Shown: positions 516 to 18,253 of the stretch, piece by piece
How positions within the stretch are numbered: the stretch's first letter is position 1
Layout of the letters: every line of letters begins with the position of its first letter
Origin: an uncultured virus (IMG/VR IMGVR_UViG_3300034103_001223)
Lineage: Duplodnaviria; Heunggongvirae; Uroviricota; Caudoviricetes
DNA length: 20,000 bases
Reading direction: 5' to 3' (one strand)
IMG/VR virus record: IMGVR_UViG_3300034103_001223
Notes under the pieces: model-generated
Told to the model about the DNA's origin: nothing
Databases searched by the model: none
What the model saw: the letters and a program-made list of their open reading frames with translations, nothing else
Position numbers and translations under genes: made by a program

Positions 516-1420
516 CAGCGGCTTACTATAAGCGTGGCAGCATCGCTGTGGACCCCAAATTCTTCGTAATCTGGAGGTGCAGTCTGATTCCTAAGCGACC
601 GAATGCAGGCTCTTGCGAAGTTGATCTTGTTTTGCTCAGAAACGAAGTCGTCGGCACTGGTGAGCACTACTCCAAACGCCTCTCTCGTTAGCGGGCCGAC
701 CCTCTTTTGAATCTCCATCGCCCTCGGTTGGAGAACGTGGAAATCTGGATACTTTGGGAAGTTGGCTGGAATCCCTAACATGTGGCAATTTACTGCCTCC
801 CTTACAGCATCAGTGTATGGACCTTCGTTTTCAATGGATACTGCAAGGGCAAGTTCAGCCTCCTTTTCGCGCTGCTTTTGCCGAGCTAGAACGCGCTTGC
901 GCTCATCCTCCTTCGCCTTCTTCTTTGCAGCAATACTGTCGCGCCTCTTCTGAAGCTCTTCAGGGGTGAGCTTTCTTCCGACTTTGGCTGGCTCAGAACT
1001 TCCAACGGCGCACAGCTTGCGAATGAACGGAGGATTGAGTTTCCCGTCCTCATCGTAAATTGCAAGATACGCAGTGTTGAGTGAGTCAATCTGGCTGAAC
1101 ACTTTTGAGATGGACTCGCAAATCTGACTCCCGTTCTCTTTTCGAGTTGCTCCGAGTAGCGTTACAGCTCGATCTCGAAGCCTCTTCTGGTCTTCTTCCA
1201 AGTTTTTTGCGTCCACCTCGGCAAGCAGCTTCCCAAGCTGCCGTTCTCCAAACTTGTTCACGACCTCGGTTGCTTCCGGGTCAACGCTTGAGAAGGACCA
1301 GTAGCAGCTCCGGTCAATTCTGAAAGCGGTTCGCTCTACTGGCTCGTCTCCTGATGAAACTCCAAACTCCCGCTCATACCACCCAAGATCGCGATTTAAC
1401 TTTGGCCTGTCTATGAACAT
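485..1420 (-). CDS. Hypothetical protein (311 aa) with central K/E/R-rich coiled coil; cargo of the repeat-flanked insertion
   Basis: Long ORF. Its ATG overlaps the last codons of the upstream gene (stop at 1411-1413) and its TGA stop lies inside the left repeat. No family recognised. Confidence 0.8.
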   Translation of the reverse strand: MFIDRPKLNRDLGWYEREFGVSSGDEPVERTAFRIDRSCYWSFSSVDPEATEVVNKFGERQLGKLLAEVDAKNLEEDQKRLRDRAVTLLGATRKENGSQICESISKVFSQIDSLNTAYLAIYDEDGKLNPPFIRKLCAVGSSEPAKVGRKLTPEELQKRRDSIAAKKKAKEDERKRVLARQKQREKEAELALAVSIENEGPYTDAVREAVNCHMLGIPANFPKYPDFHVLQPRAMEIQKRVGPLTREAFGVVLTSADDFVSEQNKINFARACIRSLRNQTAPPDYEEFGVHSDAATLIVSRCQDAITRAST

Positions 1421-1665
1421 GGGCTTTCAGGTGGATGCTCGGGTGATGGCTTCGTGATTCGTTTCACCTCCGTAATCACCCGCATAGCAGCAACTCCAAC
1501 ATTTCCAAACGTGGCGTGGTCCTCAATTCCTTGCGTTCGGCAGAGGTGTGAAAGGATGTCGAAGTTGTGACGCTTGGAGATTTCAGCAGCATCTTCCTTT
1601 GAGAGCTTGCTGAGAGCGTGTTCAGCATCAGCCACTGCCATTTCAGTCCACGACGGGTTATGCAT
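1411..1665 (-). CDS. Hypothetical protein (84 aa, MHNPSWTEMAVAD...)
   Basis: Start reassigned from 1749 to ATG1665, which overlaps the upstream stop (ATGCATAA), a typical coupled arrangement. Confidence 0.7.
   Translation of the reverse strand: MHNPSWTEMAVADAEHALSKLSKEDAAEISKRHNFDILSHLCRTQGIEDHATFGNVGVAAMRVITEVKRITKPSPEHPPESPCS
1423..1457 (+). repeat. Right copy of 35-bp direct repeat GCTTTCAGGTGGATGCTCGGGTGATGGC(T)TC(G)TGA
   Basis: Read directly from the sequence. The two mismatches (509/1451 and 512/1454) are synonymous third positions in the + frame (GCA/GCT, TCC/TCG). Confidence 0.97.
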
Positions 1666-1948
1666 TGTTAGAGGCTTGCAGTGCATCGTGCCACGCCTCG
1701 ACTTTTTCACGCACCATTTCCACCGCCATGCGTTGCGCGGTTTCGGCACTCACGGCATCGACCGGCACGGTATCCATTCCGGCCTCGTAGCAATGCATGA
1801 CCCACTTTTCGGGATAGCGGATGTGTCCACTTGTGACAACGATTCTCAGACCGCCGATTTCGGTTGTCCACGACGTAGGCTTTCGAGCCTTGTCGTCACG
1901 GCTGTATGATGTTGTGTCCTTCCAGTTCATATTGTTTTTCACGTTCAC
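1658..1948 (-). CDS. Hypothetical phage protein (96 aa)
   Basis: GTGA start/stop overlap with the upstream HTH gene and protein-like composition. ATG1930 is an alternative start. Confidence 0.75.
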   Translation of the reverse strand: MNVKNNMNWKDTTSYSRDDKARKPTSWTTEIGGLRIVVTSGHIRYPEKWVMHCYEAGMDTVPVDAVSAETAQRMAVEMVREKVEAWHDALQASNNA

Positions 1949-2283
1949 CTCTTAATCCACTTCTCCAAGCATCGGTTAAAAGTCTTCCTCGCAGCCGGTG
2001 ACAGGTGATTCAGCGGCTTCTCCGACACGGCAGCAGCCAGCAGGAATCGCCGCACTTTGAACGGCTTGAACAGGTCCACGCAGGCGGCGTCGGCAAAAGC
2101 TCCGCACACATCCACATTCACGCCTTCCCAAGAGGTCTTCACCGCCAACCGCTCCACCATGCGCAAGGACAGGCCGGAACGCTCTGCGAGCTGATTCCTT
2201 GAAAGAGGTTTCCGGTCCACCTTCGCCATCGCGGCGACGATGAAGGGGGGAACTTCGTCAAGGACTTGCGGGAGGGTTGGCAT
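1945..2283 (-). CDS. Cro/C1 (XRE)-type helix-turn-helix DNA-binding protein
   Basis: LSRNQLAERSGLSLRMVERLA...VNVDVCGAFADAACVDL matches the XRE HTH pattern. TGATG overlap with the upstream gene. Confidence 0.75.
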   Translation of the reverse strand: MPTLPQVLDEVPPFIVAAMAKVDRKPLSRNQLAERSGLSLRMVERLAVKTSWEGVNVDVCGAFADAACVDLFKPFKVRRFLLAAAVSEKPLNHLSPAARKTFNRCLEKWIKR

Positions 2284-2732
2284 CAGTTTGCCTGCGCATG
2301 AAACTTCTCCAGCGCGTTCATCTCATCGTCATTCAAGGTGATGGTCCCACCGGGAGCCGCATTGGCGAGCTTGGCGATGAACACCGCATCATCCACCGGA
2401 AGGTTCTCCACATGGCTCAACTCCACGAGGCGCTCTTTCAGAGCCGGGTTAAACTTCACTATGGCGTATCTCCGTGAGGCGGTGATAAAGGCGACGCTCC
2501 CATCAGCGAGCTTCTCCTTGCACCCCTGACACTCCGCCATCTTCAACTCTGGCGAGGTGAACAGCTTCGTTCGTTCAAACATCAAGCCGCAGATAGGGCA
2601 CATCCGGGTGAACCTCTGAGCCGACGCCACAGCCTTGTTCTTTCCGCTCGTCACCTGCGCCTTGGCCATTGAGGGGAGGTCGCCCCAAAGATTCGTCAGG
2701 CCGCGTGGTTTGTAGGGGTCGGGTTGCGACAT
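2283..2732 (-). CDS. Zinc-ribbon protein (CPICG...CQGC), 149 aa
   Basis: Two CxxC pairs. Start reassigned from TTG2831, which lies inside a hairpin, to ATG2732 (MSQPDPYK...), 7 nt after a putative -10. Confidence 0.7.
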   Translation of the reverse strand: MSQPDPYKPRGLTNLWGDLPSMAKAQVTSGKNKAVASAQRFTRMCPICGLMFERTKLFTSPELKMAECQGCKEKLADGSVAFITASRRYAIVKFNPALKERLVELSHVENLPVDDAVFIAKLANAAPGGTITLNDDEMNALEKFHAQAN

Positions 2733-2739
2733 GCCAGCG

Positions 2740-2768
2740 AGCGTCCGCCAGATTTGGCGGGGTGTCAA
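2740..2768 (-). promoter_or_regulatory. Putative sigma70 promoter TTGACA-17-GACGCT with palindrome CCGCCA-N4-TGGCGG in the spacer
   Basis: Perfect -35 at 2768-2763, 17-nt spacer, weak -10; inverted repeat at 2745-2760. Confidence 0.5.
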
Positions 2769-2820
2769 GGGGTTTCTGACAGTGTGGAGAGGGGTGAATC
2801 CTTGAGGGAGCGGAGCAGAG

Positions 2821-3095
2821 GCAAACTCCAACTGTTGCCAGTTAGAGTTGCAGAAGGGCAGATCCTCTCGGTCGCTTCGCTTCGGTTTGAACAGCCCTCC
2901 GGGACACCTTAACCATCGGAACCCGCACCAGCTTTTACGCGCTGGAACTGCTGTTATCAGTGTGCTCGGAACGGCTCGCGTCGGGCGGCTTGTGGCACAC
3001 TCTTTAAGGCAGCCGGTTTTTAGTCCATCTGCCCGTGTTTAACCTTCAACTGGCTGGAGCATTACCAGCAGGGAAGGGTTACGCCATCGGCGTCT
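2821..3095 (-). ncRNA. Candidate structured ncRNA, family not recognised
   Basis: Nested complementary pairs 3027-3034/2856-2863, 3004-3010/2906-2912 and 2995-3001/2959-2965; hairpin 2928-2945; terminal 11-bp hairpin with GCAA tetraloop at 2824-2849. No credible CDS here. Confidence 0.55.
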
Positions 3096-3211
3096 GAAAA
3101 AGGAAACACCCGACCTTTGTCATCCCGATGGGTGTGAAGCAATCTGGGAAACCTGTGGCCGGGGTGTTCGGTTTGCACAGGGGTCAAAATGATTTCTGAT
3201 TGCTTCACGCC
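3096..3211 (-). promoter_or_regulatory. Structured leader with alternative pairings ending in a terminator-like stem and U-tract (possible attenuator)
   Basis: GTGAAGCAATC pairs with GATTGCTTCAC (within 3198-3211/3131-3144). AACACCCCGGCC (3168-3157) pairs with GGTCGGGTGTT (3115-3105), followed by TCCTTTTT. Confidence 0.5.
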
Positions 3212-3214
3212 GCG

Positions 3215-3250
3215 AAGCTATATCAATAAAGATTGCTGTCAAGCTGTCAA
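3215..3250 (-). promoter_or_regulatory. Putative sigma70 promoter TTGACA-16-TAGCTT, with tandem TTGACAGC TTGACAGC overlapping the giant gene's stop codon
   Basis: TTGACA at 3250-3245 and 3242-3237, AT-rich spacer, TAGCTT at 3220-3215. Confidence 0.55.
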
Positions 3251-6200
3251 TCGCACCCGGCGAATCTTTTTCCTGCGGCTTCTCATTGGGCTAATCTTCC
3301 GGCGACGACCCGTGAGGCTGATGCGGCGAATCTTCGCCCGACGACGACCACGGGAAGCGGAAACCCCAACCGACTTCATCCGGCCAGACACCCCGCCAGT
3401 GAGTGAGACGCGACCGTAGGAGGGTTCGCGCACAGTGCCTCCAGGGCGATTCTCGGCGACATCCTCCTTGGTGATGTTCCCCGGCTTGCCAAAGAGCGCC
3501 TGTGCCCCGTCTTGCCACGCCTTGATGCCTTGGCGGATGACTTGGCCACGTTCTGTTGTGGCATCGCCAATGAGCTGCTTGTATTGCTCAACTGAAGGGC
3601 GGCGTCCGCCCAAGGCTGCGGTGACTGGATTGATTTCCTGATAGTCTTGCCACACGGATGCCTTGGCGGTCTTGGCGGCGACTTCCGGTGAGTCGCCCGC
3701 TTCGAGGCGTTGCTTGGTGTAGAACGCTTCTAGCTCGGCTATGTTCTTCTGAGCGGAAGCCTTGGCCTTAGAGAAGGCTTCAGTGTCGCCATCGCGTTGC
3801 GCCTGAGCCATGCGGCTAACATCATCGCTGATGGCGCGGCGTTGGACGGAGGTGTAGCCAGCAGGTCCAAAGACCCCAGCGGGAGGCGTCTCGATGCCTT
3901 CCACCTTGGCGTTCTCCAAAATCATGTTCTTGGTGATGTTCACCTCGCCGGGATTCATGCCCAGCAAGTAGTTCAGCTCCGCTCCACCAAACGACATTTG
4001 CAGGAGTGTCTTCCTGAGTGGGACAATCGCTTTCGTTACGTCTCCTGTATCCGAGAATATCTTAAACCCGCTCACCAAGTCCCGAAGCAGCTTGGATGCA
4101 GTTGAGAAAACGAACGCCCGCTGGGATGGGTCAAGCGGCTTCCGCCCATCTAGCCATCCGGTGACGCCTGAAATTGCATCGCCAAAGAAATACGTTGCCG
4201 CAGCGAGGTAGCGGCCAGCGGCAGCGGTCATGTGCTTCGGATTGGTCCAGAACTCTGAATCCAATGGAGTAACCCTGCCAGACCTTTGCCCCTGCATCTT
4301 TCTGCGCCACAGCTCGCCAGCAGCCTCAGCCGCTCCTTGGGTGATGAGCGCAATCGCAGCGATGCCGACATACATCGGCAGCTTGTGGAGAGCTTGCAAG
4401 ACGGCCTTCCTGTCGCGGGAGCCGCCCAGTGTGATGCGCAGCAGCTTTAATGTGGCATCTGCCGGGTATCCGGTCAGGGCCAGTAAGGTTCGCCAGATGG
4501 GATACGCCTGCCCCGAGGCTGCCCGATTCATTGGCAGCGCGGCGTTGTTCTCCGCAACCATGCTCCGCTGCACCGCTTCATAGGTGCGCGGGTCGAACAC
4601 TCTGGCTGGCTTTCCAGCCGTCTTGTCCTGATAGTATTGCAGGAGGTTCTTTTCCAACTGGAATCCTTCAGCGGAGGCGCTGTTTTCGAGGAACCTTCGG
4701 ACTTCTCCTAGCGAGTTCCTTCCATCCTGCTCGTTGCTGGTAGGCAGCCACTCGGAAGGCATCAGCATTGAGTCCTTGTTGGTCGGGTCAATCCGGGTGA
4801 TGCCAGCCTTGGCCAGCCGCTCACCGAACACCATCGCAACATCCTGAAGGCGCTGCTCAAGGTTTCCGACTAGCCCAAGTGAAAGGGCGTTCATTGAGGT
4901 GTCGCTCGTTTCAAGAACGCTGCCACGGACGAACGCCTTATTGGTGTCCAACGCGAAGTTTGCGACTCGGTTGGCGAAGTGGATTGCCCGAGAGAGTGCA
5001 TTCGCCTCCGCATCTTCCTGTTCTTTGCGCGTCTGGAACTGGCCGGTTTCGCGCCACGATTGGCCAGATACCTCAGTCCAGTCTTGGCTGGTATCAAAGC
5101 CCATGCGGTGAACCGCCGCGATGCTGTCCCTGACCGGCTGCGCTCCAACCATCGGTTTGCGTAGCGCAAATTGGATTGGCTTGAACAAGGCTTCGTCAGC
5201 CAGCACATCCACAAGTTTCTGGATAGTCTTCTGCGCCTGCGGGTCGCGCCCCATGCGGCGGTCAATAAATCCGCTGACATTACGGGCTGTCAGATAGGCC
5301 GTGTTCAAGTAGCCACGAGGGATGTTCGTCAACGCCTTCCAGAGTGCCAACTTGAGGCTCATGTAGTGCATCTGCTGCGCCACGTTGAACACCTGACCCT
5401 GACCTTGTGATGTGTTGCGAAGGGCTAGTGCGACTCCGGCCAGAATGTTTCCAAGTGTCGCATCTACGATCTTCCGGCCTATCTTGGTTGGAATTATGTC
5501 AGGGCCACCCTTGCGGTAGCTGTCCTCGAACTTCTTTAGGGATTCCTGAAGAAGTTGCAGCACGTCTTGCATTTCCTGCTGGTTGCCACCGTAGTTTTCG
5601 GACAGCAGCTTCTTGTCAGCATCCGTGGCTCCCGCAGCGCCCATTCGGTTCAGCCGATTCTCCAACTCCCTGATGGACAGGCGCAGCGCATTAGCGAAGT
5701 CCACCAAGACGGTGTGATTAGCGCGTGAAAGGGCAGTGGTGCGCTCAATGCTCCCCAGCGGGCCGTAGTCGTAGTATCTGGAAGGAAGTTCTAGTTTGGC
5801 GGCAGGCTTGGTGAACTCGTTTTCAGAGGACAACGCAATTGAGAGTCCGCTGTTTTTGGCATTGTCTTCAGTGCGCTCCTTCTGGATACGCTGCGCATGG
5901 GAGAGGTATTGGAGCAGCTCGTTGTTGAGTCCTTCCCGAGCGGTGTCCAGTGGGTTCTTCCCGCTCGTAACAGGAATCTCAGCAGCAATCAGGTCCACCA
6001 AGTCCTGCACGCTGTTCACCTGATCCATGTTCCCGGCTAGCCATCGTGCGGCAATCCGCTTCTCGGCAGCCGCCATCTCGGCGGACTGCTTGAAGGTCCG
6101 GTCGGTGCGTGGACTGTTCAAGATGTGCTGCTTCAAATCAATTACGTTCTCGTTCCAGTGCTTGACCACTGGATCGGTGCTGCTGGCGGAAAGGTCCGTT

Positions 6201-9200
6201 GCGGGAGTGAATCCTTGAGGATTTTTACCGTAGGCACTTGTCACATCAGCGATGAACTGTGTAGCTGAACGGTTCAGGTGACGCGGCATACCCTTGTCGC
6301 CGGTGTAGGAGCCTTTCCGGGTAATTTCCTTGCCGCCACGTTCGTAGCGGACGCCGGTTACGGGGTCAATCTCGGTGACTTCGCGGCGGAGCTTTTCCTC
6401 GAACGCCAGCGTCCGATTAAAGAAGGCCATGTCCTCCTTGGTGACGACCTGATTGGCGGTTGGTAGCAGAAACCCAACCCGGAGACGGGAGCCGTATTCG
6501 CGTCCGTAATGCCCCATCTCATTGAGCAAGATGCGGTAGGTGTCCTCGCTCTTAATGTTGTGCGAGCGCATCGCCTCAGATTGCAGCTTTGCCAAGTCCT
6601 GAAACTGCGCTCCAACCTTCTTTGAGTCCAGATAGCCGCGCTTGTATCTAGCAACTTGCGTGCGGAGGATTCCGCCAGCGAATCCGCCCACCAATTTGCT
6701 AATCTGCTCATACTGCCCGAAGATGTTTCCGAGGATGTTGCCCTTCATCATCTTCCGCATTATGGCCGGAGCGAGATACTGGACAGCTTTATCCAAGTCG
6801 CCGAGGTCTAGGAACATCGGCCAAACTTGCTTATTCAGAGCGTGCTTCAGGCCGATGTAATCAGCCCGGTCGAAACCAAGTTGCTGTGGAGTCGGATTAG
6901 CAGGGTTGAGTTTGTGTGCTGCTTCAGCGCGCTCGTAGTCGCCCACATAAAGCTCGGCGTTCTGGACGTATTTCCAAACCTTGTCCCGAGTGGATTGAAG
7001 GTCCAGCGCATTGCCGTCCACGTTGACCTTCAACTCTGCCTGATACTCCTTGCTGGGAGTTCCGAAGCCGCGCAGGACCGGACCCGTTGGACCCAGCACC
7101 ACCATGTTTTGCGCTCCACCAGCACCCAGCGAAACCGCTCCCCGCAACTGCTGGAACGCCGGAGAGTTGGCCGTCTGATTGAACAACGCCTGACCCTGCT
7201 GCAAGGTGCGCAGTCGAAGGACGCTCTGAGCAAGCTGCCGTGCGGCGGTCTGCCTAGCAGCGTTCGCCTTGGTGCCCTGCGCATTGGCTTGCTGGACAAT
7301 CTGGCTGGTGAGGTTCGCTGCCAGCGCCATACCAACTGGATTCCCGCTCGTGGCAAGCTGCGCAATGGACTGCATCTGAAGCGGAGGACTGTTCGCCAGC
7401 TTCGCAGCAGCATCATCGGTGAGCGTCACGATAGCACTCGCAAGGGAAGGCGATTGCTGAACCACCTTGAGCACTTCCCGAAGCGCCGCCTCAGAGATGC
7501 CAAGGGATTGCGCAACGCTCGCTCCGAAAGCAGGCATGTCGCCGGGAGCCATCAGGAAATCGTAGAGCCAGCGGTTCTGGTCGAGCGTCCGGCCCAAGTT
7601 CGCCGCTAGGGTGGTGATGGCTCCCGTGGAAGCCTCTAGGTTGGCGATGTTGGCAGCGTCTCCGACAGTGCCGGTCAAGCCCATCTCCCCCTTGGCAGCT
7701 TTCAAAGCATCCGCCACGAGGACATCAGCCAGGCCGGAAGTCACCTTGGCATCGGCGATGTCAGCCTCCGCCAGCCGGATGTCCTTGAGCAACCCCTTCT
7801 CCTCAGAGTTCAAAAGGTCGTCCATCTGCGACTTCGCAATGTCGAACTCATCGAAGGACTTCTGCAAGCTGGTCAAGACAGATGCCCGCTGCTCATCCGT
7901 TAGGGTTCCCTTCTTCAGCGCATCCTTCACAGTCGCATCGAACGAAGCCCACTTGTCGTAAATCTCCCCAAGGCGTGCCACCTCGGAGATAGACGTGGAG
8001 GAATCCATCAGAGCACGAGTCAGGTCAGCCGCCGCCTTGGCCTTCTCCGACAGGTCGCGCAGTTCGGTGATGCCTTTGCCGAAGAACTCTTGCACTGGCT
8101 CCAAGGTGAGCGCATCACGCTTGGACTGAAGCTCCACCCTGGAAGCGTTTGCGCGGGTAATCTCCTCGGCGCGTTCGCCGATGGATTGCTGTCCACGGCC
8201 ACGGTCGGTGGTAACTGGCGTGAGGTTCGCTACCACCTTCTCCTTGGCGGCAATCAGCTTGTCCAGCTTCAGGATTTCATCTGCCGGAGCCTTGATGCGG
8301 ATGTAGTAGTCCCGCAGCTCTTTCAAGGTGGCCAGCTTTCCAAGGTTGTCCACGAGCCTTCGCGCTTGCTGCTCGAAATAGACCTCCGCTTGCAGCGACT
8401 TCACCAGCTCAGGCCGGAACTGGACTCCCATCTGAGCGAGCTTTGTGACCAGCTCATCGCCGACGACGATTTGGCCGTTCTCAATGGAGACGCCATCGCG
8501 GATGTTCGCCCGCATGTCATCCGTCACGCGGTCTTGGGGAAGCTGTCGAAGCCTGCCTTCATGGAGGCTCACCAGATTGTTCAGCTCAGAGCGTGCATTC
8601 CTGAAGGATTTACTCTCGTAGGCCAGTCCTTCAAGCTGCCGACCCGCCTGCTCGAACTCCTCAACCTGCTGCCTGCCGAGGTCTGCCACAGCTTTTCCAG
8701 CAGCAGCTACGAGGGAAGGCTCAATGGCGCGACCTTGGACTTCGGTGGCGTCGGATTGGCTTACCGGAGCACCCAGCGAATACCGGATGTCCGGCGACTC
8801 CTGCTGGAATCGCTGCGAGAGGGGGATTGGTTGGCCGTCGTTATCATAGGTGATGGGGTCGGCGGACTTTAGCTGTGATGGAGAAAGCGCGATGAAAGAA
8901 TCAAGCCCACGCTCACCTTCGACCTCGTTCCGATAGACGATTGACTCGACTCCTTTTGAAAGCAGTAAGCTGCGAAGCTCTGCGTTGCTATCGCTCGCGT
9001 TGAACACCTTGTCGTATTCCGCGTTGCTAATCGGAACGCCAGCCTTGCGAAGCTCTCGAATCACGGACTGATAATTCCACGTTCCCAAATCGCTGGTCCG
9101 AACTGGATTCCCCAGCTTTGCGTAGAACGGAAAGACTGTTCCGAACTGGGATGCAGCAGACTCAGGCCCAAGGTGAACTCCAAGCTCCAACTCTCCAGAT

Positions 9201-12200
9201 GGAAGGTTGAAAACTTGGAACGCTAAATCGTTTCTACCTTCGGACACCACGCCGCCTCCGAGCTGGGACTGCCACAGCTTTGCATTTTCAACGTCCTGCT
9301 GGGTAACTCCCAGCAAGCCATCATTCGCAAGCCGTTGGTAAGTGGATGTGGCACCCATCCAGTCTTTCAAGCCAACCCTAGTCGCTAATTCTTGCAGCTT
9401 TTGCTTTGCTGACTGGTTCAACGGGGCCGTCTTTCCTTCGGTGTAGTTCGTGGAATTCGTGCCGTGGTATAGCTTGCGGCCATACCCCGCCCCCCTCGCA
9501 GCTTCATCCACCAAGGCTTGCACCTCCTGCATGTCGCCGCGCTGGACCGCTGCGAGGTATTGCTGGTCGAGTTGGTTCTGGAGGGGGCCAGTGGAGAACA
9601 TCGCCTGACCACCCATCACGGAATCCTTGATGGCGGGGGTGAGGGGGAGGGCGTTGATGGTCGCCGCCTCCTTTTGAGCTTTTTGAAACGCTGCAAAATC
9701 GGCATATTGAGTTGGCTTTCCACCGCTTTGATTGATGGCTGCCACCCCCACCTTCCCGCCAGCATTCCTCACCGCAGGCAGCTTCCCGACCACATTGCGG
9801 AAGTCCACGTCGTAGAGCTTCTTCAAGCCTTCGCCGCCGACTTTCAAGCCTTCGCCAGCAATCTCCTCGGACGTGCCGGGCTGAAGTGCGGCAGCCTTGG
9901 ATGCGAATTCCTTGCCAATGTAGGACTCAAGGCCATCCTCATTTAGAAGGTGTTTCTGACCAAGGAACGATCCATCCTTATTCCACGCTTCATAGCCCAA
10001 CCCGCCAGAAGCGTCCTTTTTAATCAGCAATTTAGAGAGCTGCTTTTCGAGCGAGTATCTTTCCGCCTGCTGCGCTCCAGTCGTCCAGCCAACCACATCA
10101 AAGCCATTCTCAGCGGCGTGCCTCAAGGCCCACTTGAAGGCAATCTCCCGCCAGTTCTTCTGGAAGAGCGCAGGCATCTTCTCGAAGTTATCCTTCTGTG
10201 GTGCTTGGACCTCCTCCAGAAACAACATCCGCTGGCCATCCTGCGTGGTGCGTTCGTTGAAGCGTAGCCGCACGATGGGGTTTGCGATGGAGCTATATTC
10301 GGGGTGGCCGTCGGACCAGTTCAAACCTTGCAAAGCAAGCCTTGCAGAGCGGTAGTCATCAATCGCTCTTTGAGATTCATTAGGAATATCAAAGTTGATT
10401 GCGTAGTCCTTGTCGTTCTTGACTGCCTCCCACGCTTCCTGCGCATTGTTAAACCCGAGGTAGTCGAGGTCGCGCAATGCGGATTTCATCCTCTCCCATT
10501 GCGGTGTAGTGTCTGGAATTTGCCGCTTTGGAACTGTCAACAGCACTTCCCTGTAGGAGCCTTCCTTCGCGCCGGGGAGCTGCCACCTTGAAAAGTAGGT
10601 TTTCGGCTCTGCGTAGGCGTCGTATTTCTTGCGGTATTCGATTGGGAGCTTGTTGTAGAACTCCTCTGACAAGTCGAATCCAGAACGCTGCACGTCTGGG
10701 TTCTTGAGAAATACCTGCTCCTGCTCTTTCAGCCAAATCGGATAGCCGGACGCCTTCCCCCCCAACGTCACATCCTTCACCTCCACCTGATTCGCCTGCA
10801 AATAGTCCAGCACCTCCTGCTTGGAATACATCTTTCCGTCTTCCAAATCGTTCACCCCGGTAAGGCCAATCTCCCCTTGAGCGATACCTTCACTCCACGA
10901 TTTCCCAAGCGTCGGGGTAGGCTTGCCCTTCGACCACTTGTTGATGACGCCCTTCCACTTCTGCCCGTTGGCATTCTGCATGGGCGTCTCCTCGACAGCC
11001 CGAACCAGCCGGGAGTAGAACGCCTTCACCATCTGCCTGATGCCCCCCTCCGCATACACCTCTCCACCACTCCTCAAAGACCGCTTCCCAGCAGCCGCCG
11101 CTTTCAGCGCCTTCGCCAGCACATCCTGCGCATCCCGCTCCGTGAACACCTTCCCGGTGAACTTCCCGTAGAGCCTCTGAATAGCACCAATCACCGCATC
11201 CCACAGTCGGGCGAGAATCCCCCGCTGTTCCTGCGTCAACTGCTGCTTCTCCAGAATATCCGCCACCGCCTCCATGCGAAGCTGCTCCTCGGAGATGTTC
11301 CCGTAAGCTGCCTTCGCTGAAGCAAGCTGCTCTGGGGTGAGCGAGGCGACCAGTCTGGAAAGCTCTTTCTGAACAGCCTTGTCGTTCTGGATGGCGTGGA
11401 AGGCTTCCTCCACGAACACCGCCCGAGCTTCTTGAGGAGAGCGCAGGTAAGCGGCGTTCAACCAGATGGTCCCGGTAGCGGGGTCATACCAGCCGCGCAC
11501 CTCGCGGCCATTGAAGACCTTCCCGTAGTTGTGCGTGACCTGAAAGTTCGGCGGGGTGGCGCTGTCAAAGAACAGCTCTCGCACCGCTTGCTCCACCTGC
11601 ATCTTGGAGAGCGACTGGGCGGGGCGGGCGGAGGGGGTGGACCCGAGGGAGAGTTGCTGGTCGCGCTCACGAATCAGATGCTCGGCGTAATCCAGGCCAG
11701 CCTTCGTGAGAGTTTTCTCCAAAAGGTATCCACCTCTGTCGCTGGACAAAGCTCGCTGTCCCTCTTCGACTTCCACCTTACCCCCTTCTTGGATTACAAG
11801 CTGGCGGATGATGTCACGTCGGGATAGCTCCTTGCCAAGGTAGCGAAATTTTGCGGTGAGCTGTTTGACCACTGCCCCGCGCTTCATCGGAGTCATTCCA
11901 TCCGTGAAGGTTCCAAGGTCTTCACGTTCAGCTTTTGCCTTAGCCTCTGCGCTCTTCTCGGCTTCCATCTTGCGAAGCGATTCCGCCCGCTGCTCCCGCC
12001 GTGCAGCCTCTCGCGTGCTTTCGGCAACCGCCTCTTGCTCTGTGTCGTAGATAGAGTCTCCAAAGCCTCGCTTTTCACCCTGCTGAACCAGCCACTTCAT
12101 CTCACCTCTCCGGTCCATCTGGTAAATTGAGCCGACGCCTTCCTTGGGGATGGCTACCCGAGCCTGCTGCGCTTCCGCTTCACCTTGTCCGGCAGCTTGC

Positions 12201-15200
12201 GATACTTCACCGGGCTTTCCTTCTGCCATTTGTGCAGGAGTTCCGGGTGGTTGATTGCGAAGAACTTCCACTGGCGCTTGCTCTTGAGGGGCATAGGGAG
12301 GTTGGGGGGAGGGTTTAGCTGGCTGCTTGCCTTTGAAAACGTAGAGGTCGCCTTCACGGACGTAGCCGGGAGGGAGTTTTCGCTTCAGCTTATATTCCTC
12401 GACTGCGATGGCGTTAAGGCTGGACCTCTCTCTTGCCGCGTTCAGAATAGTTGCTGCGTGCTCTCGCTTGGCCTGCGCTTCAGACTTGTTTCTGACAGTG
12501 CCCATCGTTGTCTTACCAATTCCCCAACCTCCAAGCGGGGTTCTTTCGCTTAGATAACGATTTGGAGACAATCTCCATGATGGCTTGCCCGAAGGATTCC
12601 AAGAGCTTGGTTCGCTATCCACATCTGGACCCAGCTCCAAATTATCGCCGCTCTCAACCCACCTGCCAGTCATCCCTAACTGACTCCCGTTATACCCAAA
12701 CAATGCGCTAGTGACGCGGGAATTGACTGGCTGATTATTCTCAACAGCAGACTTGATGGCAGCCTTTGCGGCCTCTGTGGCAGTCTTGTTATCAAGACCG
12801 CTTGCACGCCAGTCATCCAGCGACATCAGCTCAGGAGGTTTCACCGCAGCCGGAGCAGCCTCCCCCTTCTGCTTCAGCTCGGGATAGTCAGCGAGGACGG
12901 TGGGAGGGACGGGCTTGCCTTTCTTAATCGCATCAGTCAGTTCACGACGATGAAGGTCGTCCGCTTCTTCCTGTGTGTATGACTCATGTCTCGGCTCTCT
13001 GAGGCGAATCTCAGCATCATCTTTTTGGGTCTGCTTGCGGTATTCCTGCCGTGTCATTTGCCACGGTTCCTTCACCGTTTCCGCCAGCTTCGATTTGATG
13101 ACGGAATCCGTGTAAGCCTTCCACTCAGCGGAAGTGTATTCCGCCTTCGTCTTGAGCGAACCATCCGGTCGTCGTGCGTAAGCAACACCCTCCCCCTCCA
13201 ACTCCCTAGCAGCCCTCTCCGCGTAACCCCCACGGATGTCCTCCACAGCCGCCGCCAAGTCGGGGTCCACGGGCGACACCCTGCCGCGCTCGATGCCAAG
13301 CTCTCCCACGGGACGCGCTGGCATGGTCGCTTCAGGGCGGGTGGTGAGGCGCGTGTCGTAGGGTTGACCTTCGAGGGGTTCCGGGAGGGAGGGAGCTTCT
13401 GGAAGAGCAGTCGTCCGCTTCGGCGCTGCCCGCTCAAGGAATCGGTTTGGGTCGTAGATGGTATATTCACCTGTGTCCGGGCTGAATGTTCCAACATACC
13501 CTCGACGCTGTAATTCTGCGTCAATGTTTTTGACCTGCCTGAGAGCGGGTTCAGTGCGGTCCAATTCACGCAGGTTCGCAATGAGCTTGGCCGGGACATC
13601 TATAGAAACCACTCCCTTCGCGCCGTATGCCCCCACGGCTGCCGCCTCATCCGCTAAGAAGTATGTGGCCTTACCTCCAAGTCCAGTGGGTGTTTGCTTG
13701 GCGGGATCAAACCGATCAAATGCCGCACCTTTACCATGATATAAACGGACTGACTCAGCCTCCGTGGCAAGGCGGGGCGCTGCGGCCTGCGCTGCCGGGG
13801 TGATGGCTGTGCGGCGGGGCTTGGGGGTGACAGTCGGAGGAGCACCAAGCAAGTCCAGTTCTCCAGCCAGCTTCCGAGCGGTGGTCACATCGCCAGCAGC
13901 TCTTGCCGCATTGATGCGCTGTTGAAGCTGTTCGGTAGCATCCAGCGGAACGGTGCGCTTGGAATCCACCTTGGCCGGTGGCTCTGGCAGCGCGACCTTT
14001 GGAGATGGAGGGGGAAGCGGAAACTCGAAGGGCTTGCCCCGAGCAGCTTCCGACATGGCCTTCGCCTGCTGGACGTTCTCAAGAAAGCCGAACTCCTTGA
14101 ACCCACTGACAGCGGTGGTCCCGTCATCGAACTTGACCGTGACAGTCGCGTTGGGGTTCCCGTCCACCTTCGGACCAGTCATCGCCGTGACAGTGCCGAC
14201 CTTGCCGAAACCGCCGCCAGCTTGGGACAACTTCACCACCTTGTTGCCAATGCCGAACGAGTCCGGCGATTGGGCGAGGATGTTCGGAGACGATGGTGAG
14301 GTGCTCCACGTTGAGAGTGGTTGGTTCAGCATCAACCCGCTCACCTTTGGCATCGGGGGCGGCTCAATAGGAACGCTCACCCGCTGGCTTGCTTGAGGAG
14401 GGGCTACCTGCGGGGCCGGGATAGGGGCAGGTGCGACGGGAGCTGCTGGAGGGGTGGCAGGAGCGGCGGTGGTAGGAGTTGCTGCTGGTTGCCCACGTCC
14501 TGAGACTAGCTGCGCACTGCCGCCCATCGCCGCGCCAGCGACAAAGCCCTGAGCGGCTGCCTCGGCAAGACCCTGATCCCACGGCTTTCCAAGAGCGAGG
14601 TTGCTGAACATCTGCTCCTGCATGGACTGCGGAAGCTCCTCCAAAGCACCTTCTTGTAAGGCACCAGCAATGATGGCCTTGAACTTCGGGAGAGCGGTCT
14701 TCTGTGCTGCTTGGGTGCCACCTCTGGCGAGTGCCGTCTGGATGTCTTCCAATCCGAGCTTCTGGGCAGCCTTGCCGCCGAGGATACCGAAAGCAGCGGT
14801 TCCGGCACCGCTTGCAGCAGCGTATCCAGCCTGTTCCCAAGTGAGGAATCCATCGGGAGATTGTTGCCGAATGTTCTCCGCAGCGGACCCTGCTCCAACA
14901 AGCCCTTCACCAACAGCGCCAGCCACAACCGGAGCCGACGCACCGGCTGCCCACGTTGCGAACTTGGGGCCAATCTTAGCAATCCCCTTCAAAGCCGCCT
15001 GAGAAAGTGCGCCACCACCAAACATCAATGGAAGCGACTCGATGATGGATTCAGCAGCAACCGTCGGGTTCTCCACCAAGGCTTGCACCGTCGGGATGAA
15101 TCCCTTGGCCTGCGCCACCCGACCCTGCGCCATCTGCTGTTCCCCTGTCTGGTAGGAGGAGAGGATGTCCTTCGCCTCACGAAACTTGAAGCCAGCATCT

Positions 15201-15493
15201 TCGACAGCTTTACCAGCGCGACCCTTGGTAACTATGTCCGCTAAACCGACCGCCGCTTCGGGGACGCTGATAATGCCTTTAGCAAATGCGATAGCCGGAT
15301 CGGCCACCACTCGGCGCAAGGGAGAGCTGTCGTCTATGATGTCCTGCTCGACCCTTGCGGATTCGCGCTCGGCATTGAGCTTGATCCACTGGCTATCCCG
15401 CTCAGTCATGGGCTGAAGCGAATCCAGCGGCGGTGGAGTAAATGCTTCCGGCTCCAGTGAGTCAACTGGAGGGGGTGTGAATTCAAAGGCCAT
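3239..15493 (-). CDS. Giant phage polyvalent / internal virion (ejection) protein, 4084 aa, with two ART-like domains and a degenerate zincin-like domain
   Basis: Uninterrupted 12.3-kb ORF. Contains a Gly/Ala-rich hydrophobic N-terminal region, ART-PolyVal-like motifs (LYHGT...PFYAKLGNP...IVYRNEVE...PSQLKSADPITYDNDGQPIPLSQRF...DIRYS), a second ART-like module (LYHG...F..FD...TYF...GY.G...EY.IYDP), a GWYDP...IWLNA...EEAFH module, and a long helical C-terminal half. Confidence 0.9.
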   Translation of the reverse strand: MAFEFTPPPVDSLEPEAFTPPPLDSLQPMTERDSQWIKLNAERESARVEQDIIDDSSPLRRVVADPAIAFAKGIISVPEAAVGLADIVTKGRAGKAVEDAGFKFREAKDILSSYQTGEQQMAQGRVAQAKGFIPTVQALVENPTVAAESIIESLPLMFGGGALSQAALKGIAKIGPKFATWAAGASAPVVAGAVGEGLVGAGSAAENIRQQSPDGFLTWEQAGYAAASGAGTAAFGILGGKAAQKLGLEDIQTALARGGTQAAQKTALPKFKAIIAGALQEGALEELPQSMQEQMFSNLALGKPWDQGLAEAAAQGFVAGAAMGGSAQLVSGRGQPAATPTTAAPATPPAAPVAPAPIPAPQVAPPQASQRVSVPIEPPPMPKVSGLMLNQPLSTWSTSPSSPNILAQSPDSFGIGNKVVKLSQAGGGFGKVGTVTAMTGPKVDGNPNATVTVKFDDGTTAVSGFKEFGFLENVQQAKAMSEAARGKPFEFPLPPPSPKVALPEPPAKVDSKRTVPLDATEQLQQRINAARAAGDVTTARKLAGELDLLGAPPTVTPKPRRTAITPAAQAAAPRLATEAESVRLYHGKGAAFDRFDPAKQTPTGLGGKATYFLADEAAAVGAYGAKGVVSIDVPAKLIANLRELDRTEPALRQVKNIDAELQRRGYVGTFSPDTGEYTIYDPNRFLERAAPKRTTALPEAPSLPEPLEGQPYDTRLTTRPEATMPARPVGELGIERGRVSPVDPDLAAAVEDIRGGYAERAARELEGEGVAYARRPDGSLKTKAEYTSAEWKAYTDSVIKSKLAETVKEPWQMTRQEYRKQTQKDDAEIRLREPRHESYTQEEADDLHRRELTDAIKKGKPVPPTVLADYPELKQKGEAAPAAVKPPELMSLDDWRASGLDNKTATEAAKAAIKSAVENNQPVNSRVTSALFGYNGSQLGMTGRWVESGDNLELGPDVDSEPSSWNPSGKPSWRLSPNRYLSERTPLGGWGIGKTTMGTVRNKSEAQAKREHAATILNAARERSSLNAIAVEEYKLKRKLPPGYVREGDLYVFKGKQPAKPSPQPPYAPQEQAPVEVLRNQPPGTPAQMAEGKPGEVSQAAGQGEAEAQQARVAIPKEGVGSIYQMDRRGEMKWLVQQGEKRGFGDSIYDTEQEAVAESTREAARREQRAESLRKMEAEKSAEAKAKAEREDLGTFTDGMTPMKRGAVVKQLTAKFRYLGKELSRRDIIRQLVIQEGGKVEVEEGQRALSSDRGGYLLEKTLTKAGLDYAEHLIRERDQQLSLGSTPSARPAQSLSKMQVEQAVRELFFDSATPPNFQVTHNYGKVFNGREVRGWYDPATGTIWLNAAYLRSPQEARAVFVEEAFHAIQNDKAVQKELSRLVASLTPEQLASAKAAYGNISEEQLRMEAVADILEKQQLTQEQRGILARLWDAVIGAIQRLYGKFTGKVFTERDAQDVLAKALKAAAAGKRSLRSGGEVYAEGGIRQMVKAFYSRLVRAVEETPMQNANGQKWKGVINKWSKGKPTPTLGKSWSEGIAQGEIGLTGVNDLEDGKMYSKQEVLDYLQANQVEVKDVTLGGKASGYPIWLKEQEQVFLKNPDVQRSGFDLSEEFYNKLPIEYRKKYDAYAEPKTYFSRWQLPGAKEGSYREVLLTVPKRQIPDTTPQWERMKSALRDLDYLGFNNAQEAWEAVKNDKDYAINFDIPNESQRAIDDYRSARLALQGLNWSDGHPEYSSIANPIVRLRFNERTTQDGQRMLFLEEVQAPQKDNFEKMPALFQKNWREIAFKWALRHAAENGFDVVGWTTGAQQAERYSLEKQLSKLLIKKDASGGLGYEAWNKDGSFLGQKHLLNEDGLESYIGKEFASKAAALQPGTSEEIAGEGLKVGGEGLKKLYDVDFRNVVGKLPAVRNAGGKVGVAAINQSGGKPTQYADFAAFQKAQKEAATINALPLTPAIKDSVMGGQAMFSTGPLQNQLDQQYLAAVQRGDMQEVQALVDEAARGAGYGRKLYHGTNSTNYTEGKTAPLNQSAKQKLQELATRVGLKDWMGATSTYQRLANDGLLGVTQQDVENAKLWQSQLGGGVVSEGRNDLAFQVFNLPSGELELGVHLGPESAASQFGTVFPFYAKLGNPVRTSDLGTWNYQSVIRELRKAGVPISNAEYDKVFNASDSNAELRSLLLSKGVESIVYRNEVEGERGLDSFIALSPSQLKSADPITYDNDGQPIPLSQRFQQESPDIRYSLGAPVSQSDATEVQGRAIEPSLVAAAGKAVADLGRQQVEEFEQAGRQLEGLAYESKSFRNARSELNNLVSLHEGRLRQLPQDRVTDDMRANIRDGVSIENGQIVVGDELVTKLAQMGVQFRPELVKSLQAEVYFEQQARRLVDNLGKLATLKELRDYYIRIKAPADEILKLDKLIAAKEKVVANLTPVTTDRGRGQQSIGERAEEITRANASRVELQSKRDALTLEPVQEFFGKGITELRDLSEKAKAAADLTRALMDSSTSISEVARLGEIYDKWASFDATVKDALKKGTLTDEQRASVLTSLQKSFDEFDIAKSQMDDLLNSEEKGLLKDIRLAEADIADAKVTSGLADVLVADALKAAKGEMGLTGTVGDAANIANLEASTGAITTLAANLGRTLDQNRWLYDFLMAPGDMPAFGASVAQSLGISEAALREVLKVVQQSPSLASAIVTLTDDAAAKLANSPPLQMQSIAQLATSGNPVGMALAANLTSQIVQQANAQGTKANAARQTAARQLAQSVLRLRTLQQGQALFNQTANSPAFQQLRGAVSLGAGGAQNMVVLGPTGPVLRGFGTPSKEYQAELKVNVDGNALDLQSTRDKVWKYVQNAELYVGDYERAEAAHKLNPANPTPQQLGFDRADYIGLKHALNKQVWPMFLDLGDLDKAVQYLAPAIMRKMMKGNILGNIFGQYEQISKLVGGFAGGILRTQVARYKRGYLDSKKVGAQFQDLAKLQSEAMRSHNIKSEDTYRILLNEMGHYGREYGSRLRVGFLLPTANQVVTKEDMAFFNRTLAFEEKLRREVTEIDPVTGVRYERGGKEITRKGSYTGDKGMPRHLNRSATQFIADVTSAYGKNPQGFTPATDLSASSTDPVVKHWNENVIDLKQHILNSPRTDRTFKQSAEMAAAEKRIAARWLAGNMDQVNSVQDLVDLIAAEIPVTSGKNPLDTAREGLNNELLQYLSHAQRIQKERTEDNAKNSGLSIALSSENEFTKPAAKLELPSRYYDYGPLGSIERTTALSRANHTVLVDFANALRLSIRELENRLNRMGAAGATDADKKLLSENYGGNQQEMQDVLQLLQESLKKFEDSYRKGGPDIIPTKIGRKIVDATLGNILAGVALALRNTSQGQGQVFNVAQQMHYMSLKLALWKALTNIPRGYLNTAYLTARNVSGFIDRRMGRDPQAQKTIQKLVDVLADEALFKPIQFALRKPMVGAQPVRDSIAAVHRMGFDTSQDWTEVSGQSWRETGQFQTRKEQEDAEANALSRAIHFANRVANFALDTNKAFVRGSVLETSDTSMNALSLGLVGNLEQRLQDVAMVFGERLAKAGITRIDPTNKDSMLMPSEWLPTSNEQDGRNSLGEVRRFLENSASAEGFQLEKNLLQYYQDKTAGKPARVFDPRTYEAVQRSMVAENNAALPMNRAASGQAYPIWRTLLALTGYPADATLKLLRITLGGSRDRKAVLQALHKLPMYVGIAAIALITQGAAEAAGELWRRKMQGQRSGRVTPLDSEFWTNPKHMTAAAGRYLAAATYFFGDAISGVTGWLDGRKPLDPSQRAFVFSTASKLLRDLVSGFKIFSDTGDVTKAIVPLRKTLLQMSFGGAELNYLLGMNPGEVNITKNMILENAKVEGIETPPAGVFGPAGYTSVQRRAISDDVSRMAQAQRDGDTEAFSKAKASAQKNIAELEAFYTKQRLEAGDSPEVAAKTAKASVWQDYQEINPVTAALGGRRPSVEQYKQLIGDATTERGQVIRQGIKAWQDGAQALFGKPGNITKEDVAENRPGGTVREPSYGRVSLTGGVSGRMKSVGVSASRGRRRAKIRRISLTGRRRKISPMRSRRKKIRRVRLTA

Positions 15494-17659: not shown

Positions 17660-17974
17660 TTAAGCGGTTTTAAGGCGGCTTTCAAGGAGGAAGTCGTAGA
17701 GCGAGCCGCAGCTCGCAGGTTTGAGGCATTCAAACCGCATCGGAGGCATCTTGGCCCACGCAAGCTCACGACGCTTCCAGTTACGGTTCAGCCTTCCAGC
17801 GGGGAGCTTTCTGCCGCGATTCTTGCGTCCACTTCCAGAGCGACCTTTGGAGGGGGTGGTAATGCTCCAGCCTTGAGGCATTTCATAGACCTTCTGACTG
17901 CTGAAAGCGGACTCAATCTCCGCTTCCGTAAGCAGCACCGCATCGCAGTTTGAGATGGAGCCAACGTCTTGCAT
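17660..17974 (-). CDS. Hypothetical basic protein (104 aa)
   Basis: ATG lies 1 nt after the upstream stop and the ORF ends 11 nt before the next ATG, so it fills the operon gap exactly. Confidence 0.6.
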   Translation of the reverse strand: MQDVGSISNCDAVLLTEAEIESAFSSQKVYEMPQGWSITTPSKGRSGSGRKNRGRKLPAGRLNRNWKRRELAWAKMPPMRFECLKPASCGSLYDFLLESRLKTA

Positions 17975-18190: not shown

Positions 18191-18253
18191 ATTCTACAAT
18201 GCCAGCACGAATGTCAAACAAAGGCTTGCCAAGAAACCCACAACGAATATCGT
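18191..18253. promoter_or_regulatory. Divergent sigma70-like promoters: minus TTGACA-15-TAGAAT; plus TTGCCA-16-TATCGT
   Basis: Minus: 18217-18212 and 18196-18191. Plus: 18226-18231 and 18248-18253. Located in the AT-rich gap where gene orientation switches. The 15-nt spacer is short. Confidence 0.55.

Follow-up and report, generated by a model that had tools for sequence, protein, structure and literature searches.

What occupies the only long ORF-free stretch of a gene-dense phage genome fragment, directly downstream of the gene of a giant protein? The DNA analysed here, a stretch of 20,000 nucleotides that we call the window, comes from an uncultivated freshwater phage, and 22 of the 24 runs listed with the stretch are lake, freshwater or river metagenomes. 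The genome is estimated at ~65 kb, since related IMG/VR contigs of ~20 kb are rated ~30% complete. The dominant ORF of the window encodes 4084 aa (15493..3239, minus strand). In its N-terminal part it matches PHROG 30335 and 11358, with weaker matches to the DarB-like and virion-RNA-polymerase PHROGs, and this part is ~40% identical to a 'structural' or PLxRFG-domain protein of H66-type Pseudomonas phages. According to the annotation of these relatives, 'giant virion gene' appears to be a fair label. Residues 582–625 of the ORF (window 13619–13750) weakly resemble PF18760, the ADP-ribosyltransferase domain of polyvalent proteins, with 24.9 bits, under the cut-off of 31.2.

Between the stop codon of the giant ORF (3241–3239) and the ATG of the next gene (2732) lies a gap of 506 nt, which according to the ORF listing is the only long ORF-free stretch in the window, as a first-pass annotation of the sequence had stated. 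In that annotation, the part 2821–3095 was drawn as a nested multi-stem RNA of ~270 nt that is read from the minus strand and belongs to no recognised family; a structured ssDNA origin was the other possibility. The non-coding character of the gap, the minus-strand sense and the lack of an Rfam family were borne out by the present analysis, whereas the nested fold and the ssDNA origin were not.

A dispensable unit between two genes

Nine related IMG/VR contigs were collected by searches with the downstream protein and with the C-terminus of the giant protein, the latter giving the same eight contigs. A metagenome scan with the downstream-protein alignment detected seven loci, none of them with the segment described below. 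Three more records that reach the junction were obtained in this way (L070, L071 and L074); L072 and L073, equal in length to the L006 and L009 contigs, were taken as the same records, and L075 and L076 stop short of the site. Only two of the 13 records spanning the junction, the window and the contig L005, carry a segment of 467 nt between two copies of CTTGACA, which we call the cassette (Table 1). Among the related contigs, the gap sequence is common to L005 only. The GC content is 54% in the cassette and 57% in its conserved core, similar to that of the window (58%).

Seven of the 11 records without the cassette (L001–L004, L070, L071 and L074) are simple empty sites. In these records the last codons and the stop of the giant gene (…GCTTGACA) lead directly into the hairpin CCGCCA-NNNN-TGGCGG and the next gene, so that the two genes flanking the cassette are directly adjacent. 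A single copy of CTTGACA is present, with a 7-nt overlap between the alignment blocks. An eighth record, L006, lacks the cassette too and has a variant leader, and the remaining three (L007, L008 and L009) have small ORFs just downstream instead, inserted after the conserved hairpin and not before it. The junction is a cargo (accessory-gene) hot spot. In L007 (2810–3005) and L008 (2805–2995) the small ORF is Cys-rich and encodes ~70 aa (CxxC…HC…C), and in L009 (2503–3025) two ORFs of 89 and 82 aa are found.

The gap is non-coding: an ORF of at least 50 aa is absent from its minus strand, its ORFs match neither Pfam nor a homologue, and a 1-nt indel breaks the longest minus-strand ORF. The cassette is a presence/absence unit bounded by a 7-bp direct repeat, dispensable and non-coding. 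Because the stretch is wholly missing from 11 of the 13 related records, it is unlikely to be a structured ssDNA origin or an essential element of any kind. A second element at the junction, consisting of TTGACA, the hairpin CCGCCA-NNNN-TGGCGG and a GAYGST hexamer 17 nt past the -35 (window 2745–2768, minus strand), is kept in every relative, with AATC and GATT as loop variants of the hairpin, and may represent either the native promoter of the genes that follow or a hairpin that regulates them. Downstream of the cassette, the genes in window 516–1948 are likewise mosaic. L001, L003, L004 and L008 skip from ~1949 to ~515, L005 and L007 keep window 1459–1, and the joints are marked by short 35-nt repeats.

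Four of the 24 listed runs were examined (X7, X9, X12 and X15), of which X9, X12 and X15 come from three studies. Filled and empty forms coexist in these three lake or river metagenomes, and in X7 the cassette is without cover. Each of the three runs yields one contig of ~500 nt with the cassette. The empty joint runs from 2762 to 3237 in X12 and X15 (with 7 ambiguous letters) and from 2760 to 3235 in X9, and 474 nt are skipped. The rough k-mer depths in X9, X12 and X15, which are not shares of cells, are 21.1, 12 and 4.8 for the cassette contigs and 5.55, 12.8 and 18 for the empty-joint contigs; other junction forms account for a further rough depth of 14.2 in X9 and 13.5 in X12. None of the 24 listed runs is recorded as RNA. 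The runs X23 and X24, which come from two named organisms (A and B) and are guessed to be RNA, contain 4–6% of the sampled words of window 2300–3800.

Copies of the cassette elsewhere were sought with several searches. No match of the region was found by blastn in GenBank phages and plasmids. IMG/VR was scanned for exact occurrences of one 27-mer, of three 16-mers and of a gapped pattern of two motifs, and among the matches listed only the L005 contig held the cassette; the matches from the 16-mers and the gapped pattern were checked by blastn, and the rest were chance or unrelated sequences, including, among the matches listed for the gapped pattern, an unrelated AT-rich coding repeat. One 17-mer gave 31 chance matches in species-representative genomes. 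A BLAST search of 428 nt against 401 genomes of one bacterial order, a set centred on a Methylotenera MAG that was chosen only as a plausible freshwater lineage, gave only matches of 20–43 nt (E 0.002–0.009) and not the cassette. A paralogue is found neither in the window nor in four related contigs. Thus no second genomic context and no distant homologue of the cassette were found in the databases searched; copies less than ~90% identical would escape the exact-word scans. In the literature, as far as the accessible parts of the papers go, we found no RNA reported for this locus or for the phage group.

Promoter-like element, hairpins and conserved core

The features of the cassette and its borders are summarised in Table 1.

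Table 1. Features of the cassette and its borders, in window coordinates.
Feature	Position	Strand	Sequence and remarks
Left CTTGACA copy	3237..3243	minus	holds the giant ORF stop TGA; doubles as the -35-like hexamer of the cassette
Cassette	2770..3236	minus	in the window and the L005 contig
Right CTTGACA copy	2763..2769	minus	followed by hairpin CCGCCA-AATC-TGGCGG (2760-2745) and the ATG of the next gene, as in empty-site relatives
Promoter-like element	3215..3242	minus	TTGACA-16 nt-TAGCTT; in L005, TTGACG-16 nt-TAGATT
Hairpin A	3134..3208	minus	75 nt; 5' stem-loop of the putative ~113-nt small RNA
Hairpin B	3126-3102 (feature 3097..3126)	minus	followed by UUCCUUUUU; terminator-like end of the short RNA; MFE, alternative pairing in consensus fold
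Small hairpin	3093-3081	minus	ACGCC-GAU-GGCGU
Hairpin AACC..GAAGGUU	3080-3041	minus	
Hairpin loop and 3' arm	3052..3067	minus	UGGUAAUGCUCCAGCC; perfect 16-nt complement to the mRNA sense of ORF 17660..17974 at 17872-17857
Closing helix	3034-3027 / 2863-2856	minus	GGGCAGAU / AUCUGCCC; reading and script
Helix	3010-3004 / 2912-2906	minus	GCCUUAA / UUAAGGU; last pair G-U
Helix	3001-2995 / 2965-2959	minus	AGUGUGC / GCACACU
Hairpin	2945-2928	minus	CCAGC-GCGUAAAA-GCUGG
Terminal hairpin	2849-2824	minus	AACUCUAACUG-GCAA-CAGUUGGAGUU; 11 bp, one U-G, perfect only on the minus strand; then UUUG
14-nt direct repeat, copy 1	3167..3180	minus	CUGU[G/U]CAAACCGAA; hairpin A loop region
14-nt direct repeat, copy 2	2881..2894	minus	CUGU[G/U]CAAACCGAA; core
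Conserved core	2784..3086	minus	303/303 nt identical to L005; holds all nested helices of the first-pass fold
C-rich, G-poor tail	2770..2823	minus	18-20 C vs 4 G per 40 nt

Between the window and L005, 10 of the 12 hexamer letters of the promoter-like element are kept, whereas only 5 of the 16 spacer letters are identical. Kept hexamers across an unrelated spacer are the pattern expected of a promoter. The motif TTGACR-N15-17-TAGNNT occurs twice in the window where 0.07 are expected, a count that is not independent since the pattern was written after both sites had been seen. The second site (18191–18217, minus strand; TTGACA-15 nt-TAGAAT) heads the long block of minus-strand genes and overlaps the region where divergent plus-strand genes start. 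Nothing was called in 2600–3400 by a strict sigma-70 promoter scan and a strict terminator scan.

The element is followed by hairpin A, in which none of the 31 predicted pairs is broken between the window and L005. The pair 3199–3143 is U-A in the window and G-C in L005, a compensatory change. The pair 3198–3144 is C-G in the window and U-G in L005, and on the plus strand the latter would be an A-C mismatch. The alignment comprises two sequences, and this covariation is one event in it. The contigs of X9, X12 and X15 have the same changes in hairpin A as L005, and their extra changes at 3192, 3189 and 3165 are all unpaired in the minimum-free-energy (MFE) fold. Since the C-G to U-G change and the G-U pairs work only on the minus strand, and the promoter-like element lies upstream on that strand, the minus strand is taken as the sense strand, in agreement with the first-pass annotation.

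Hairpin B is followed by a U-run, which is one U shorter in X9, X12 and X15 owing to a deletion at 3097. In the MFE fold, this loss and the changes of the runs at 3128 and 3108 are neutral. In the consensus fold with L005, the change of U to C at 3108 would break a pair of hairpin B. The small hairpin at 3093–3081 is broken by one listed change (3091 G>A in X9 and X12). The fold of 3211–3097 has the layout of a stem-loop and a terminator-like hairpin with one compensatory pair, and its stability is in the range of chance, with z -1.62 (16 of 200 shuffles are as stable). In sequence, the promoter-like element, hairpin A and hairpin B with its U-run look like a small RNA of ~113 nt.

The identity to L005 is very uneven along the cassette. 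The first ~30 nt are almost wholly different, and the bin with the promoter shows 84% identity, followed by 98/100 in 3190–3091 and 300/300 in 3090–2791. The 100-nt bins of the flanking coding sequence are 74–96% identical. The alignment shows much stronger conservation in the last ~300 nt of the cassette than in the genes on either side. In X9 and X12, 13 differences are listed in 3087–3199 and none in 2784–3086. In the contigs of X9, X12 and X15 no difference is listed in the core, with 166 differences outside that listing and, by subtraction, up to 4 (X12), 7 (X9) and 26 (X15) unplaced differences per contig. X9, X12 and X15 share one haplotype of the 5' module, so that the comparison covers three haplotypes only (the window, the L005 type and the X-run type). 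X12 combines a promoter region like that of the window with hairpin changes like those of L005, which indicates that the alleles recombine. The uneven divergence is real, and judged from these alignments the identity of the core could reflect either purifying selection or a recently exchanged tract.

Putative RNA cargo and leads on its function

We give an even chance to the reading of the stretch as a self-contained accessory unit with a non-coding transcript, a putative phage 'moron' with RNA cargo, in the hot spot after the giant virion-protein gene. Phage morons, known from lambdoid phages and HK97, are independent units of promoter, cargo and terminator between genes that are adjacent in related phages. 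The cassette likewise lies between genes that abut in relatives, has promoter-like and terminator-like elements of its own, is dispensable, and occupies a hot spot that also takes other small cargo. Unlike in morons, the cargo contains no ORF, and the predicted promoter and terminator fail strict consensus scans. Prophages and phages also encode trans-acting small RNAs such as DicF, IsrK and AsxR/AgvB. The 5' module resembles them in its promoter-like element, its 5' stem-loop with an exposed loop, its terminator-like hairpin with a U-run and its length of ~113 nt, and the cassette has a 16-nt complementarity to an mRNA. It differs from them in having no sequence or Rfam relationship and in the conserved body of ~300 nt past the terminator-like hairpin. 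From these comparisons, the closest known kind appears to be the phage moron, here with a putative RNA cargo, together with the prophage-encoded small RNAs, rather than any described RNA family.

In the proposed mechanism, the left copy of CTTGACA would supply the -35 box of the cassette promoter, and transcription of the minus strand would start near 3209. Most transcripts would end after hairpin A, hairpin B and the U-run, giving the small RNA of ~113 nt. Read-through would give an RNA of ~390–430 nt with the conserved core, ending at the GCAA-capped hairpin or in the C-rich tail, which is a possible Rho-loading region. The most likely mode of action would be base-pairing in trans via exposed loops, because CAAACCGAA is displayed twice and a loop has a 16-nt complementarity to the phage's own ORF 17660..17974. 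The RNA would then modulate the expression of phage or host genes and be kept as a polymorphism in lake phage populations.

The 16-nt match was found post hoc; when the cassette was shuffled with its dinucleotides preserved, 1 of 1000 shuffles gave a match at least this long to the minus-strand transcripts of the window. The putative target encodes 104 aa, has no family match and no IMG/VR relatives, and lies beyond the reach of the related contigs. CAAACCGAA, also found post hoc, occurs twice in the window where 0.2 are expected, and two occurrences are reached by 4 of 200 shuffles. Both the 16-nt match and the 14-nt repeat are compatible with an RNA that presents short seeds for base-pairing, and neither is proof of it. 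In two related contigs the repeated motif has a match of 9–10 nt, which we disregard as too short. If the cassette is a unit from promoter to terminator with an RNA-only product, RNA joins the cargo repertoire of uncultivated freshwater phages. Such a unit would be tractable, being polymorphic in nature, with natural filled and empty alleles and with a core that is invariant in the two relatives' haplotypes seen.

An unlikely alternative is a functionless passenger, either the remnant of a decayed moron or filler caught by illegitimate recombination at the CTTGACA microhomology, with the identity of the core due to recent homologous exchange. The absence of the cassette from 11 of 13 records, a fold stability at chance level, the lack of a homologue elsewhere and the recombination shown by the mosaic haplotype of X12 are all consistent with it. 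A passenger does not readily explain why the divergence is so uneven, with 13 listed differences in 3087–3199 against none in 2784–3086 (and 0/303 between the cores of the window and L005), why the promoter hexamers are kept across an unrelated spacer, or why the changes in hairpin A preserve the structure. In addition, judged by rough k-mer depth, which is not a share of cells, the contig with the cassette is in none of the three runs either rare or fixed relative to the contigs with the empty joint. If the cassette is only passenger DNA, it illustrates that a hand-drawn fold in a GC-rich gap can be real in sequence and yet no better than chance.

A reading to which we also give a minor chance places the ~300-nt core at the centre. 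The core would represent a new class of phage RNA whose sequence is almost absolutely constrained, such as a decoy or a regulator directed against a host factor or a defence, and the cassette would be an RNA-only moron in balanced polymorphism with the ~113-nt small RNA as second product. Accessory hot spots of phages are places where functions for anti-defence and host takeover accumulate, and the known cargo there is almost all protein.

Proposed fold, orientation and coding capacity

The fold of the first-pass annotation makes 2821–3095 one compact, highly structured RNA of ~270 nt, a ribozyme, a decoy or similar, with nested helices inside the closing helix GGGCAGAU/AUCUGCCC. We consider this quite unlikely. 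Direct reading and a script confirmed all the helices on the minus strand at the positions given for them, together with their G-U pairs and the GCAA loop; the G-U pairs favour that strand, and the core that holds the helices is strongly conserved. The plus-strand centroid and the minus-strand fold of 2856–3034 also recover the closing helix and two inner hairpins. The stability was compared with dinucleotide-preserving shuffles, a control that the first-pass annotation itself had named. On the minus strand, 2821–3095 gives z -1.51, and 17 of 200 shuffles fold equally well; on the plus strand z is -1.12 (29/200). For 2784–3086 z is -1.04 (13/100), and for the enclosed domain 2856–3034, limited by the closing helix, it is -0.07 (96/200). 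Only the whole gap of 504 nt reaches z -3.13, with none of 100 shuffles as stable.

In the minus-strand MFE structure of the full region, a local hairpin takes the place of the closing helix. The proposed helices sum to -66.8 kcal/mol, compared with -97.1 kcal/mol for the MFE structure, which consists partly of other pairs. Covariation could not be scored inside 2821–3095 because the only full homologue in hand, that of L005, is identical there, and the only covariation found is that of hairpin A (3208–3134), outside this region. The nested fold has neither excess stability nor covariation, and the hand-drawn multi-stem architecture is not supported. No Rfam family was assigned, as the first-pass annotation had anticipated: the whole window has no match at the gathering threshold, and with the 4227 models of Rfam 15 at E up to 10, the sole match was on the plus strand to a vertebrate lncRNA model (14.4 bits, against 70). 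ARAGORN detected no tRNA or tmRNA. GOLLD, ROOL and HEARO are large structured RNAs in Rfam that are associated with phages. The cassette is like them phage-borne, non-coding and hundreds of nucleotides long; unlike them, it matches none of the Rfam models, and a complex fold is without statistical support.

A very unlikely reading is that the cassette is a cis-acting module, a second promoter with a long leader for the downstream genes (2732..2283 and beyond) that alters their timing or level, any structure acting in cis only. The orientation is that of the downstream genes, with the promoter-like element 480 nt upstream of them, and the tail of the terminal hairpin is only UUUG, which makes read-through plausible. 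However, the cassette leaves the native arrangement of TTGACA, hairpin and ATG intact on its downstream side, a hairpin and its U-run occur only ~110 nt past the promoter-like element, and an invariant body of 300 nt is unneeded for a mere leader.

It is highly improbable that the cassette is a non-autonomous mobile element (MITE-like or derived from an IS) with a 7-bp target-site duplication. Exact 7-bp direct repeats surround the insert of a few hundred bases, with one copy in the empty sites, and filled and empty sites occur in one population, as is the case for MITEs and other non-autonomous insertion elements. Unlike these elements, the cassette has internal but no terminal inverted repeats. 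Its first ~30 nt, variable between the window and L005, do not resemble transposon ends, and it is single-copy wherever searched (the window, four related contigs, IMG/VR k-mers, a genome k-mer scan and 401 genomes). Moreover, a microhomology of 7 bp fits illegitimate recombination or deletion equally.

Other known kinds of element were rejected. An ORF-less group I intron has no Rfam intron match; none of the eight registers of the repeat gives an exon ending in U together with an intron ending in G, and the position of the insert, at or after the stop codon, further disfavours it. An integron cassette, attP, a DGR template, a CRISPR-like repeat or anti-CRISPR RNA, and a type I or III toxin-antitoxin system show no defining sequence feature here. 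As for a CsrA sponge, the six GGA in ~430 nt counted by reading are about the number expected by chance.

That the cassette encodes one or more small proteins is hardly tenable. Short ORFs do exist (minus strand, 48 and 40 aa; plus strand, 64 and 62 aa), but Pfam gave no match for these four longest ORFs (40–64 aa), no homologue of the 64-aa ORF, which lies over the core on the plus strand, occurs among 5.8 billion clusters, and none of six ORF translations was found in a collection of 15 billion proteins. The 1-nt deletion at 3097, present in X9, X12 and X15, shifts the frame of the 48-aa ORF.
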